This document shows positions 33,001 to 45,000 of a stretch of DNA of 64,000 nucleotides, piece after piece; position 1 is the first letter of the stretch; every line of letters begins with the position of its first letter. The stretch lies in the NCBI RefSeq assembly GCF_054482525.1, contig NZ_CM137006.1, one strand, 5' to 3'. The position numbers were made by a program.

Positions 33001-36000
33001 TTACTCTGCATGTTATCTGGCCGTTTCTGTGGATCTGGGCGACGCTCTATCAACCGGAGCGTGGCTGGGGTATGCAGTCACATGTTGCGTCGCAGGAGAA
33101 AGCGACTGACCCGGAAATCGCCGCACTTTCTGACCGAATTTCCCGGCTGGAGCATCAACTCGCCGCCGAGAAAAAGACTGACTATTCCACGTTCCCGGAG
33201 ATCTAATTATGGATCTATTGATCGTTTTAACTTACGTGGCGCTGGCGTGGGCGGTCTTTAAAATCTTCCGCATTCCGGTGAATCAGTGGACGCTGGCGAC
33301 GGCGGCGCTGGGAGGCGTGTTTCTGGTGAGTGGTTTGATTTTGTTGATGAACTACAATCACCCTTACACTTTTACCGCGCAAAAGGCAGTGATAGCGATC
33401 CCCATCACGCCACAGGTGACGGGAATTGTTACTGAAGTCACTGACAAGAATAATCAGCTTATTCAAAAGGGCGAGGTGCTTTTTAAACTCGACCCGGTTC
33501 GTTACCAGGCGCGAGTTGACAGACTTCAGGCTGACCTGATGACGGCGACGCATAATATAAAGACGCTGCGCGCGCAGCTCACTGAAGCGCAGGCCAACAC
33601 CACCCAGGTTTCAGCGGAGCGCGACCGTCTATTTAAAAATTATCAACGTTATCTGAAAGGCAGCCAGGCGGCGGTGAATCCGTTCTCGGAACGTGACATC
33701 GACGATGCGCGGCAAAACTTCCTCGCGCAGGACGCGCTGGTGAAAGGCTCGGTGGCGGAGCAGGCGCAGATCCAGAGCCAGCTCGACAGTATGGTTAACG
33801 GCGAGCAATCGCAGATTGTGAGCTTAAGAGCGCAACTTACTGAAGCAAAATATAACCTTGAGCAGACTGTCATTCGCGCACCAAGCAATGGCTACGTTAC
33901 TCAGGTACTGATCCGCCCAGGTACATACGCAGCTGCCTTGCCGCTACGTCCGGTGATGGTTTTCATCCCCGAGCAAAAACGGCAAATTGTCGCCCAATTT
34001 CGGCAAAACTCGCTGTTACGTCTGAAACCCGGCGATGATGCGGAAGTGGTGTTTAACGCGCTACCTGGGCAGGTGTTCCACGGCAAACTGACCAGTATTT
34101 TACCTGTCGTGCCAGGCGGTTCGTATCAGGCGCAAGGGGTATTGCAATCATTAACGGTCGTGCCCGGCACGGACGGTGTGCTGGGAACCATTGAACTGGA
34201 CCCTAACGCTGATATCGATGCCTTACCCGACGGCATCTACGCCCAGGTGGCAGTTTACTCCGACCATTTCAGCCATGTTTCGGTGATGCGGAAGGTGCTG
34301 CTGAGAATGACCAGTTGGATGCATTATCTTTATTTGGATCATTGAGTAGGGAAGGGGGAGATTATGGAACTTTGCTCCCTGTAAGGACTAATTATTTTTG
34401 CATATTACTTCATTGGCTGCGATGATTTTTCGTTAATATCCATTATGTTAAGAAGTTCGGGATGAGTGTGAACTCATTGGATTTTTTATCCGTCTTGATC
34501 TGCCGAAGGATCAGACCATACATTGTCGAGATCGCAATGATGATATGAGTTGTTCCTCTGCCACGGCTCTAATCAAAAAAGAGCAGGAGTGCTTTTCCAT
34601 CTATTGCGATGATGGCTTTATTATCTGAAGGATGACAGTCACATTTAAAAATATTTAATTTATAGATCACAATGTAGGTTCATGTAATATATGTATACAA
34701 CTATTTTTCTCTTCACTTTTAATTATCGTATTCATTATAACACTAAGTTAAAAAACTCCTGGAGAGTGAGTCATTAATATATTTTTAAATATAATTAAGT
34801 TATTATTCATCGATGCATTTTATAGAATCATCAATGGCTACAATAGTACTATTAACTCTCCAATTTATATTTTTATTATCATTGCAAATATTAACTGAAT
34901 CTATATCAATGATTTTTTTATTTTTATCTTTTATTTACAGTTTCAATGCAATCAGCGACAAGTTGGTGTGGATTTAGATTCTTCAGATATGGTCTTATGA
35001 TCTTTCCCTTGCTTAATAAATAGCATGTATAGGATTCGGAAAGTCCAGCATCTATTTTGTACATCATTATTCTAGATAAGGATGTGAGAAATGCCTTGTT
35101 ATCATTAGCAGCCATATATGCCAGTCCGAGTTCAGCCTCTGCGGCTTTACATGAAAAATAGCTAAGTGAACACGCTTTTCGTCCCTCTTGGGTACTGGCT
35201 GATATTAGTGCCCATAATATTGCCTTGTCTGCCAAATCCAACTCTCTCTGAAATTGGTTTACAGTAACTGCATTCGCAGAAATAGAGAAAAAAAGCACAA
35301 TTGTTAATAACCTTGCCATATTTCTAGTCCGTCACTGTTAATGTGCTATCTGGCTCTGAAAATATTAGCTCATTTAATTTTTGCATGTCATTAGATGAAC
35401 CAGTTATACAACCCTCGGAACAGAATCGAGGTCCTAAAGATGGACCAAAAGCGTTTAAACAACTATGTGTTAAAAATCCATCACGATTATACGTTTCTGT
35501 ATTTGCTGACGGTACTAAACGTATACCATTAGGTTTTCTATTAGTTGCTCCAGGACCATTAACATTCCAGCTCCATACCCCTGGAGGTATTGGGCCTCTA
35601 TTTTGTAAGTGTGTACAACCAGGATTATTTTTACATTGCATATTATTACCATTATTACCAGAGGCGACTGAAATAGTAAGCACACCATAAGAATTATCAT
35701 CACTTGGCGTATCTGAAACGCATGAAAGCATACCTAAAGTTATGCTGTATAAACAGGTCGCTAATCCCAACGGGTCAATATCAGTTATCGGATTCAACGG
35801 ATACTGATAAAAATTCCATCCCCCCTTCAGTCCAATCGGATCCTGAGTGATATACCGCCCCTGCAGCTGGTGCGGGTTCTCTTCATTCAGCAGGTTGCCC
35901 CACTCATCGTATTCTGCGCACCATTCTGTTGCCCCTTCCGTGCTGATAAGCACCAGCGGCAGGCCGCGATGGTCGCAGTGGTACAGGTGGATTTTTCGCG

Positions 36001-42000: not shown

Positions 42001-45000
42001 GATGCACCGTCTGGCGCTCACCGGTCAGGCGGCCTTTCTCATCATACCCGTAATGCACCGTCACCCGGTGGCCTTCGCTGAGATGGCTGATTTGTGTCAG
42101 CCAGCCGCGTTCGTCATACTGCCACTGCTCTGCCGGTTCACCCTTCACGGTGCGGTGAGTGAGGCGGTCTGCTTCGTCATAGTGCCAGTGGGTGACCAGC
42201 CCCTCATCCTCGCTGCGGATAAGTTTGCCGGTCAGGTCGTGGTGATAACGCTGTGTGCGGCCGTCAAAGCCGGTTTCCTGTATCAGCCGGTCAAGTACAT
42301 CGTAACGGAAGGTGGTGTGGCTGCCGTTTTCACTGGTCAGGCGGATGACCCGTCCGGCAGCATCGTATTCCATACTGCGCGTCAGACCGCCCTGCGTGGT
42401 ACGGATGGCCTTTCCCCACGCATCGTACTGTGTCCCGTTTCTGCTGCCGTCCGGGGCAATGACGGCGGTCAGGTCACCGGCGGCGTTGTATTCATACCGC
42501 GTTTCATGGCCCTGCATGTCTTTCACCGCAATTAACTGTCCACGGCTGTCGTATGCGCGGTACTGGCTCAGGCCTTCCTCGCGGTGCACCGCCGTCACCT
42601 GACCAAAACGGTCATGGTCATAACGGGTTACATAACCGGAACAGTCAGTGACGGTCAGCAACTGACCGTAACGGCTCCATGTCATGGTTTTCCGGCTGCC
42701 GGTGGCATCCTCCGTTGCGCAGGGTAAGTCACTGTGTGGATTATCATAACGGTAGCGGGTGATATCGCCGTCAGGGGCAGTTTCCTGAATCAGACGGCCG
42801 GATTCATCATATTCCCGGCGTATTTCCAGCCCGTCAGTCCCGGTGGCTGACGTTAACTGGCTGTGGTGGTTATAGTAAAACGCCGATGCCCTGCCATCCG
42901 GCGTGGTGATGCGCGTGATGAGGCCCGTCACCACATCCGGGCTGTATTCTGTTGTCCGGCCTGCGGCATCCGTCTGTGCCTTAAGCCTGCCCACCGCATC
43001 AAACTGACTCTGCGTGACGCTGCCGTCCGCGTGTTCCTTTTTCACCACCCGCTTCAGCCCGCCTTCGCCCTGCGTGTGCAGCACTTCACGGCGGTCCAGA
43101 CTGTCGGTGATGGTGATGCGGTCTTTCTCATACTGATACGTGTAGCTTAAGCCTGCCGGGTTTAGCTGCTCTGTCACCCGCCCGTCGCTGTCGTAACGGT
43201 AACGGATTTCCGGCCGGCCCGTGTGACGGTGCGCCACCATCCGGCCCCGGTATTTATCATCGTAAGTAAAGCTGCGCACCTGTGTATTGCTGCGGTCATA
43301 CACCGCCGCCAGTTCGCCGCGCGGCGTCCAGCCATAGCGTACCAGCGGCGCGGCTGGCAGGTTATCCGGATATTCCGGGTCGTGCGTCAGCCACACGGCA
43401 GACAGACGGATGCCGTTGTCCCGGCCATATTCGGTGTAACCCGGCAGGGTATCAGGAAAAGCGGACGGTTCCGTCCCGCCGGAAATGGCCTGCTGCCGGG
43501 CTTCTTCTGCCCGCTGCGCCTGCGTGGTCAGTACCAGCCGGAAGTGACGCCCGGCACCATCCGTCACGCCGCTGAATTCGCCGCCAGCCTCACGGTGGAA
43601 CGTCTGTGTGCGCCCGAAGCGGTCCACCAGCCCGGTCAGTACCCGGTACGGCGGCAGCGGCGCAGGCAGCACCTCATCCGCCTCCGGCACCCGCTCACAC
43701 CAGCCGAGTACCCACCACGGCCCCTGCGGACTGTTCGTCGCCAGATAACGATGCGGACTCAGGCGAAGCTCTTCCGGCAGCGCCTGCCAGAGTGCGGCCA
43801 GCCGGTGACCTTCATCCAGTTTCGCCACGCCGCCACGCACCAGCCAGAGTGACTCGCTGCGGCTGTAACCGTCCTCACCGGGAAACAGGTGCTCAAAATA
43901 CAGGCTCCTGCCGCCGTTATCACTGAGTATCAGTGTGTTATCGCGCAGCTGTAAGCGGATATCCGCGGGCATTTTCCAGCCGGGGCCGAGGCTCCCCACC
44001 GGCGCGGGCGTTTTTGTCCGGTAACTGCTGTAGGTGCGGGAGAGGATGAACGGCAGCGGGCCGGGCAGGGCAAGGTCGGTTTCGCCGGGAAGGACCTTCG
44101 CGCCGAGCAGCGGATTGACCGGATGGCCGGACGTCACCCCGCCGGGGCACACCGAACAGGCCACGCCGGTGGGGGCACCGATGCGCACCCCGGCTGAACC
44201 CTGAACAATGCTACCGCCATACTGCGTCATGTCGCCCTGACGCGCCGCCGGTTTTCCGCTCATCTGCTCATCCTTGTTTTATCGGGTTATTTGTCTGCTG
44301 ACAGGCGAAACCCTACAGATTTATAAGAAAGCCTTAAGTGAGATATCTGTCAGATAAGAACAATTAGGAAAATATTTATATCACCATGATAAATATCTGA
44401 TTTATTGGGAGGTAACAAACCATCAACATTTTCTGCCCTTTTTCCCATCACCAGGCCATACTGATATTTTTCCTCGCACAAAGGACTCGGCATGAAACTC
44501 GTCGGTAGCTACACCAGCCCGTTTGTACGCAAACTTTCTATTCTGTTGTTAGAAAAGGGTATAACTTTCGAATTTATTAATGAACTGCCCTATAACGCGG
44601 ACAACGGCGTGGCGCAATTTAACCCGTTAGGGAAAGTGCCGGTGCTGGTGGCCGAAGAGGGCGAATGTTGGTTTGATTCGCCGATCATCGCTGAATATAT
44701 TGAATTAATGAATGTCGCTCCGGCGATGTTGCCGCGCGATCCGCTGGAGTCGTTGCGGGTGCGCAAAATTGAGGCGCTGGCGGATGGCATTATGGATGCC
44801 GGGCTGGTATCGGTACGTGAACAGGCGCGTCCGGCGGCGCAGCAGTCTGAAGATGAATTGTTACGCCAGCGGGAGAAAATCAACCGCAGTCTGGATGTGC
44901 TGGAAGGATATCTGGTCGATGGCACGCTCAAAACCGATACGGTCAATCTGGCGACTATCGCCATTGCCTGTGCCGTCGGATATCTCAATTTCCGCCGCGT

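Follow-up and report, generated by a model that had tools for sequence, protein, structure and literature searches.

Could the string of small AT-rich genes behind a full-length Escherichia coli rhsA gene be a record of the toxins that this gene has carried one after another? We addressed this question in a 64,000-nucleotide stretch of contig NZ_CM137006.1 (NCBI RefSeq assembly GCF_054482525.1; hereafter the window, numbered from its first letter), for which a preliminary description had proposed an Rhs polymorphic-toxin locus with an array of orphan toxin/immunity modules. Our results indicate that this is very probably the E. coli rhsA element, in which a complete polymorphic-toxin module heads a trail of displaced ones. 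The architecture itself is already known, having been described for K-12 RhsA in 1990 and generalised in 2009–2011, and the locus is confirmed but ordinary. Its value is that of a clean textbook case of Rhs locus diversification: seven toxin/immunity generations are legible in order, for each of them a live counterpart exists in a different E. coli strain, and existing knowledge is unchanged.

The locus occupies the K-12 rhsA position, with yibF-selA-selB on one side and yibH-yibI-mtlA on the other, and all its genes, like all the remnants given below by coordinates, are on the minus strand. Over 10 kb, it matches E. coli 19KM1776 at 100% identity and PCN033 at 99.9%, and at least 80% of this region was found in 264 of 5426 complete E. 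coli genomes. RefSeq annotation exists for every gene of the locus, and most of them have named K-12 counterparts (ybfO, ybfC, yhhH, yrhC, yibA, yibJ, yibS/W and yibV). The G+C content is 0.57–0.68 in the rhsA core and drops to 0.25–0.46 from about position 40500 down to 34400, interrupted by a single GC-rich island at 35800–36200 where an orphan core fragment is located; apart from this island, the same-strand stretch downstream of rhsA is AT-rich over about 5 kb, as first described.

The complete core and its attached tip

The rhsA open reading frame (ORF; 44263..40076) encodes 1395 residues, of which residues 1–1243 (40535..44263) form the core, with a DUF6531 N-terminus, YD repeats and an Rhs-associated core domain ending in YIDSMGL. 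The core scored 2622.5 bits against the NCBIfam RHS_core model NF041261 (cut-off 2000). Furthermore, the protein matched YD_repeat (TIGR01643, 6e-42), Rhs_assc_core (TIGR03696, 1.6e-22, spanning residues 1166–1243) and, at its N-terminus, Pfam DUF6531 (3e-18). At the nucleotide level, the core is 95.5–95.7% identical to the cores of K-12 rhsA, rhsB and rhsC. The protein is a member of the Rhs family, and the gene is the full-length, GC-rich rhsA that the preliminary description had reported.

Behind the core, the G+C content falls from about 0.6 to about 0.4, and the boundary motif is DSMGL, a variant of DPxGL that also occurs in YbfO and in two homologues (P0008 and P0010). The remaining residues, 1244–1395 (152 residues; 40076..40534), make up the attached tip, a putative toxin that we assign to a YbfO type by its homology to K-12 YbfO. 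The C-terminal 374 residues of the window RhsA are 97% identical to this K-12 orphan, which is annotated as a "pseudogene" downstream of rhsC. No relative of the tip was found in Pfam, NCBIfam or, by phmmer, among the PDB sequences, and a search of 1.84 billion clustered proteins yielded only 28 representatives of the family. In several of these relatives, a DPxGL-type Rhs boundary precedes the tip. The family has four conserved Cys, and its C-terminus is always R-K or R-R.

The next gene (39510..40079; 189 residues) overlaps the end of rhsA by 4 nucleotides, and its product, 93% identical to K-12 YbfC, is the putative cognate immunity protein; the tip and its immunity partner are conserved together in K-12. 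This is the overlapping immunity ORF noted earlier. The YbfC homologue had no Pfam match and no match to PDB sequences by phmmer. It carries a Sec-type signal peptide; here and below, signal peptides were called heuristically from the charge of the n-region, Kyte-Doolittle hydropathy and an AXA-like cleavage site, in place of SignalP or another trained predictor. We also considered a lipoprotein and rejected it, since its Cys is preceded by Asn (by Asp in K-12) and there is no lipobox.

The placement of this pair differs among strains. K-12 has it as a silent orphan (ybfO/ybfC) next to rhsC, and here it is attached to a core; similarly, a 3.6-kb block of the window (41502..37922) is colinear at 96.6% identity with the rhsC locus of strain XH993. 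The tips of this locus are cassettes, and by these comparisons the YbfO-type tip is a mobile one. The displaced-tip arrangement that had been proposed is thus supported by the orphan state of the pair in K-12 and by the XH993 colinearity, together with the toxin tails that we found beside the immunity genes downstream (see below).

How would such a tip act? By analogy with the solved Rhs structures, the YD-repeat shell of the 1395-residue protein would enclose the tip, which would then probably be freed by the autoproteolysis typical of Rhs proteins. Delivery into neighbouring bacteria would most likely depend on a type VI secretion system (T6SS) encoded elsewhere in the genome, and the Sec-exported YbfC homologue would protect the producer, presumably in the periplasm. 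The tip could even belong to a toxin family whose fold or periplasmic target is new, a suggestion that we make tentatively and rate somewhat below even. It is prompted by about 100 conserved residues, two probable disulfides, the near-invariant basic pair at the C-terminus and the exported YbfC. If the tip is such a toxin, the K-12 "pseudogene" ybfO would be a deployable weapon. Its K-12 annotation is that of a pseudogene next to an uncharacterised protein, and the presence of ybfO/ybfC on a complete delivery core makes the window copy a good candidate pair for characterising a toxin.

Displaced modules and their toxin tails

Downstream of the attached pair lie six displaced modules. Five retain the immunity gene together with merely the last 8–45 codons of the toxin, and one is a complete orphan. 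A partner toxin fused to an Rhs core was located elsewhere in E. coli for each orphan immunity gene, and the possibility that the small ORFs have no partner toxin anywhere, which had been raised earlier, falls away. The coding state of the array had been over-read: three of the six downstream immunity genes are disrupted (the DUF6258 and yhhH-like genes by frameshifts, the pentapeptide gene by truncation), and a single downstream toxin tip is intact.

The first module begins with the last 45 codons of a DUF4329-type Rhs toxin (39351..39488), 93% identical to the matching end of a full-length Rhs-DUF4329 protein from E. coli (L011). The small exported protein that follows (38994..39341; 115 residues, intact, with signal peptide) matches the Imm-NTF2-2 family (Pfam PF15631, 1.6e-16) and is labelled NTF2 fold immunity protein by the NCBI Prokaryotic Genome Annotation Pipeline (PGAP). 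When the 45-residue tail peptide was searched against an index of 5.8 billion proteins, it retrieved two tiny ORFs only; the partner toxin was located through the genomic context of an immunity homologue, namely the NTF2 gene downstream of the L011 Rhs-DUF4329 gene, which is 84% identical to the 115-residue window gene.

The region behind it, previously described as apparently decayed, does contain an AT-rich Rhs core remnant (38558..38790), corresponding to RhsA residues 919–1000 (tblastn with RhsA, E 2.4e-10) and split by an in-frame stop and a frameshift into two pieces in different frames. It also contains a frameshifted immunity gene that had been missed. Joined to the core remnant is the 3' end of a displaced toxin tip, its last ~17 codons (38505..38562, ending in ...SNQDEADIMCGMPEYF and a stop), identical to the tail of an orphan in strain ETEC4075. 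That orphan is a 300-residue Rhs C-terminal protein (L002:6156-7058) with a complete tip, followed by an intact DUF6258 gene of 130 residues, whose product starts MFDRIYLGDRAIKKIEF. Once its reading frame is repaired, the window counterpart (38091..38490) matches Pfam PF19772 (2.2e-24). Its frame is lost behind codon 13, where a single-base difference in an A-run yields AIKN and a stop, as opposed to AIKK in ETEC4075. RefSeq starts the gene at an ATT at 38450; its natural ATG, at 38490, is out of frame with that start. On this comparison, the gene is better called frameshifted than ATT-started.

Next comes a short Rhs core remnant of 54 nucleotides (37922..37975), as first described; it is 85–87% identical to 35910-35963 and 40767-40820 and also closes the XH993 rhsC block. 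It is followed by 62 nucleotides of IS3 (37860..37921), an insertion sequence (IS), with 95% identity to IS3 transposase genes in many records, which suggests that the junction between the core remnant and the following pentapeptide fragment was shaped by an IS3 insertion and then a deletion. The pentapeptide-repeat ORF is present where it had been reported (37850..37473), and it turns out to be a chimera. Its pentapeptide part (37560..37850; Pfam Pentapeptide_4, 9e-6) is a truncated immunity gene, which over codons 5–101 matches the N-terminal 97 of the 161 residues encoded by an intact gene of strain AF40 at 91% identity, and about 8–10 codons of the toxin tail of this module are directly upstream. 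The rest of the ORF (37473..37559) is the last 28 codons of an RhsB-type toxin tip, 75% identical to the K-12 RhsB C-terminus and fused in frame to the truncated immunity gene, so that the whole is a chimeric pseudogene. In strain 19M19, a DUF4329 annotation stands at the position of this tail. We considered whether the pentapeptide ORF might be a toxin tip and rejected this, since its intact homologue in AF40 is a separate 161-residue gene that overlaps the stop of a full-length Rhs gene.

Two side observations concern this module. The AF40 Rhs tip that is paired with the intact pentapeptide gene (L014:4439-5026) carries a GNHR motif, which presumably resembles ParB-like nuclease domains; a DNA-mimicking pentapeptide immunity protein would fit a DNA-directed toxin. 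Separately, RefSeq splits the chimeric "pentapeptide" pseudogene in two, an annotation artefact like the ATT start of the DUF6258 gene.

The RhsB-type tail is accompanied by its own immunity gene, a homologue of yhhH (37122..37501) that matches Imm-NTF2-2 (Pfam PF15631, 2.3e-19) and is marked "frameshifted" by PGAP. The small paralogous protein of the preliminary description is indeed related to the NTF2 gene through this family; its 89-residue ORF (37391..37122), however, is the distal part of a frameshifted yhhH-type gene of 127 residues. The window DNA from 37559 to 36671 is colinear with the rhsB-tail/yhhH/yrhC segment of K-12 at 91%. In particular, the K-12 pseudogene yrhC (L006:5388-5633) is colinear with the 5' part of yibA (window 37017..36671), and this alignment identifies yrhC as a yibA fragment. 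The rhsB locus, too, therefore once had a yibA-type immunity gene behind yhhH.

The fifth module is the K-12 RhsA pair itself. K-12 homology resumes at 37069, which corresponds to L007:4386, and K-12 rhsA ends at L007:4417; the last ~10 codons of a K-12-type RhsA tip are therefore retained (37038..37069). Behind them is yibA (36175..37017), a HEAT-repeat immunity gene that is intact, with its toxin absent. It is 96% identical to K-12 YibA, as had been recognised before, and scored 455.6 bits against NCBIfam NF007244 (cut-off 275).

Does this run of immunity genes persist because they protect the cell? One could read the array as an immunity island, in which the toxins were lost and selection by the Rhs toxins of other E. 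coli kept the immunity genes. This would parallel the orphan-immunity arrays of Vibrio and acquired interbacterial defence clusters, and it would agree with the five modules reduced to an immunity gene and a toxin tail, with the intact state of the NTF2 gene, yibA and the Imm57 domain of the last module, and with the presence of the matching toxins on full-length Rhs proteins of other E. coli; the retention of orphan immunity genes in E. coli has been discussed (PMC6730261). On the other hand, frameshifts or truncation have damaged the DUF6258, yhhH-like and pentapeptide genes and the Imm57 gene is marked frameshifted, and we consider this explanation of the array as a whole unlikely. We favour a trail of displaced modules, formed by serial tip replacement: through recombination in the conserved core, each incoming cassette would shift the older one downstream, and the silent copies would then be eroded by deletions, two IS insertions and frameshifts. 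Within such a trail, the intact orphan immunity genes (the NTF2 gene, yibA and the Imm57 domain) may still protect against matching toxins.

The complete orphan and its exported partner

The last module consists of an orphan rhs C-terminal fragment (35324..36157), in which a core fragment (RhsA ~1087–1243) is fused in frame to a Tlde1-like tip (Pfam RHS 2e-14, Tlde1_dom 5e-7), and of an immunity gene with a signal peptide (34803..35319; Pfam PF15596, Imm57, 1.6e-43, model positions 2–100 of 100). The orphan fragment and exported immunity-like ORF that had been predicted are both recovered by these matches, at 36133..35324 and 35319..34924. PGAP labels the Imm57 gene "frameshifted"; the whole Imm57 domain is inside a 131-residue ORF (35319..34924), and the frameshift costs only a C-terminal extension. 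The protein is 92% identical to K-12 YibV, and the orphan Tlde1-like region has about 91% nucleotide identity to K-12 yibS/yibW. By this comparison, K-12 yibS/yibW/yibV correspond to the module, which is their intact counterpart.

The orphan core fragment repeats the core of the main gene. It is 95% identical over 274 nucleotides to 40718-40991, far beyond chance, and a second repeat of 112 nucleotides at 87% includes a perfect run of 72. The orphan core lacks 84 nucleotides (28 residues) in frame (window 35861-35871 compared with 40645-40717), and in the main gene the deleted segment is bounded by the 7-nucleotide direct repeat GCTGCAG, which is typical of a slippage or microhomology-mediated deletion. 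The 72-nucleotide perfect match to the main gene persists downstream of the deletion. A single RecA crossover in this identical stretch could fuse the Tlde1-like tip to the full core with the loss of 4.8 kb, and the product would switch the toxin of the strain to the Tlde1-like tip.

The tip itself comprises 145 residues (Pfam PF10908, independent E-value 5e-7) and keeps every residue that is invariant among 11 homologues from E. coli, Ralstonia, Paraburkholderia and metagenomes. These include His99 and an invariant CSEGC, in which Glu replaces the second His of the H-x(n)-(S/T)HGC-h motif. The AlphaFold2 model reached a predicted local distance difference test score (pLDDT) of 83 and a predicted template modelling score (pTM) of 0.80. 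All the top 25 Foldseek matches of this model in the PDB contain an L,D-transpeptidase (YkuD-type) catalytic domain, at modest scores (E 1e-3 to 0.3, TM 0.37–0.55). Searches of the PDB sequences with phmmer and with a profile of the tip returned Rhs core ends only and no Tlde1a chain. Because the model shows the L,D-transpeptidase fold, the tip is predicted to attack peptidoglycan. Tlde1a has been described as a peptidoglycan-targeting effector with an altered LD-transpeptidase fold and conserved disulfides that acts on peptide stems, and its toxicity was tested from the construct "pBRA SP-Tlde1a" (PMC9638812).

The state of this module also bears on whether the downstream stretch is anything but a neutral graveyard, in which only rhsA and the ybfC homologue function and the array persists because deletion is slow. 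The frameshifts, truncations and chimeric ORF, the IS3 and ISAs1 remnants and the AT-rich decayed core remnant all agree with such a view, as does the report that orphan fragments mostly have no translation starts (PMC2935791). However, the Tlde1-like tip has an open frame with all family-invariant residues whereas K-12 yibS/yibW are broken, YibA is full length and as close to its K-12 homologue as stated above, and the same array is kept at 99% identity or more in over 260 genomes. We therefore regard a purely neutral graveyard as doubtful, albeit a little easier to reconcile with the locus than an immunity island, and prefer a trail of displaced modules that includes both decayed and intact members.

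In which compartment would these toxins act? Three immunity proteins carry signal peptides, as had been counted before: in the YbfC homologue, the 115-residue NTF2 protein and Imm57, a basic n-region is combined with a hydrophobic stretch of 10 residues (Kyte-Doolittle 2.9–3.3) and with AXA-like sites. These features are weaker in the YhhH homologue after repair of its frame, and by the same heuristic YibA and the DUF6258 protein have no signal-peptide features. The proposal of periplasm-acting toxins is well supported for the Tlde1-like/Imm57 module only, where a modelled L,D-transpeptidase fold would meet an exported partner; in the case of YbfO/YbfC and of DUF4329/NTF2, we only infer that the target lies there. 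The export of the partners is also relevant to a very different role, that of tips made from internal starts that act inside the producer as toxin–antitoxin-like regulators and not as weapons. Such a role is reported for the main and orphan Rhs of Salmonella Typhimurium (PMC7043789), and the orphan fragment of the window does have in-frame GTG/ATG codons at its 5' end. Since the immunity proteins of both complete modules carry export signals, and since the Tlde1-like tip must reach the periplasm to meet peptidoglycan, a cytoplasmic circuit of this kind does not suit the two complete pairs, and we consider it very improbable.

Several observations weigh against our reading of the locus and have to be set beside the evidence for it. 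The two frameshifted immunity genes, the truncated one and the lost tail of Imm57 point to decay, and not maintenance, of much of the array. The AlphaFold2 model of the YbfO-type tip is poor (pLDDT 52, from a 13-sequence alignment). At the N-terminus of RhsA, the Pfam PAAR_motif gives a weak partial match (residues 2–20, independent E-value 0.18), with KPAARQGD present in the sequence. Neither vgrG, eagR nor T6SS genes were found in the 34 kb on the mtlA side or beside yibF-selAB, and because these flanks are devoid of them, delivery by T6SS is something that we only infer. Furthermore, the 28 residues missing from the orphan core include RYYDP, and a crossover on the upstream side of the deletion would be likely to yield a defective product. 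The profile searches that had been suggested assigned Imm-NTF2-2, DUF6258, Pentapeptide_4, YibA, Tlde1 and Imm57, and left the YbfO-type tip and YbfC unmatched.

At its distal end, the rhsA element closes with the remnant of an ISAs1/H-repeat transposase gene (34418..34642), about 78% identical to K-12 yhhI, ybfL and ybfD; its position matches that of the K-12 pseudogene yibU. Elsewhere in the window (21025-26277, minus strand), the RefSeq annotation of an identical strain places a gene for a YadA-like trimeric autotransporter of 1750 residues and a DUF3251 gene between lldP and yibL.

Comparison with known systems

The closest general precedent is the C-terminal displacement array (PMC2935791, PMC3150448), in which core recombination displaces the tips (Jackson et al. 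2009, PMC2935791) and rhs-CT/rhsI pairs can function as orphans (Poole et al. 2011, PMC3150448). The window shares with these arrays a GC-rich core, AT-rich non-homologous tips, repeated core fragments, frameshifted fragments, and a tip that is attached in one strain and an orphan in another. Unlike in the published arrays, the core fragment and almost all of the toxin are gone from most modules of the window, and the immunity gene is left. As regards delivery, E. coli Rhs C-terminal toxins, including the "neighbourless" ones without an adjacent vgrG, are T6SS effectors (PMC6730261).

The rhs main/orphan pair of Salmonella Typhimurium similarly consists of a full-length rhs gene followed by an orphan that shares core sequence. 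Recombination between the two can reportedly swap the deployed toxin, as work by Koskiniemi and colleagues from 2014 is said to have found. The window differs from this pair in the 84-nucleotide deletion of its orphan core, and a switch here would be a prediction.

With Salmonella Tlde1/Tldi1 (PMC9638812), the last module has in common the Pfam Tlde1 domain, a modelled L,D-transpeptidase fold, a conserved His and Cys, Cys pairs that would suit a periplasmic protein, and an exported immunity protein. Unlike Salmonella Tlde1, the window domain is an Rhs tip and not a stand-alone effector, it has SEGC instead of (S/T)HGC, and its immunity protein is of the Imm57 family.

For the attached pair, the counterpart is K-12 ybfO/ybfC at rhsC, with an essentially identical tip, a 93% identical immunity protein and the same 4-nucleotide overlap. 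The K-12 ybfO is a silent, N-terminally truncated orphan, whereas the window copy is on a complete core and is presumably deployed.

Finally, the K-12 RhsA element (rhsA-yibA-yibJ-yibG-yibS/yibW-yibV-yibU) occupies the same site between yibF and yibH. Its core (95.6%) and yibA (96%) are nearly identical to those of the window, and it has the same distal Tlde1-like/Imm57 module and H-repeat remnant. Its own RhsA tip is toxic, and YibA neutralises it (Vlazny and Hill 1995, cited by Poole et al. 2011, PMC3150448). In the window, the attached tip is of the YbfO type instead of the K-12 RhsA type, the core and yibA are separated by about 3 kb of modules of the rhsC and rhsB types, and the yibJ tip and yibG are missing; on the other hand, the Tlde1-like tip, a pseudogene in K-12, is intact.

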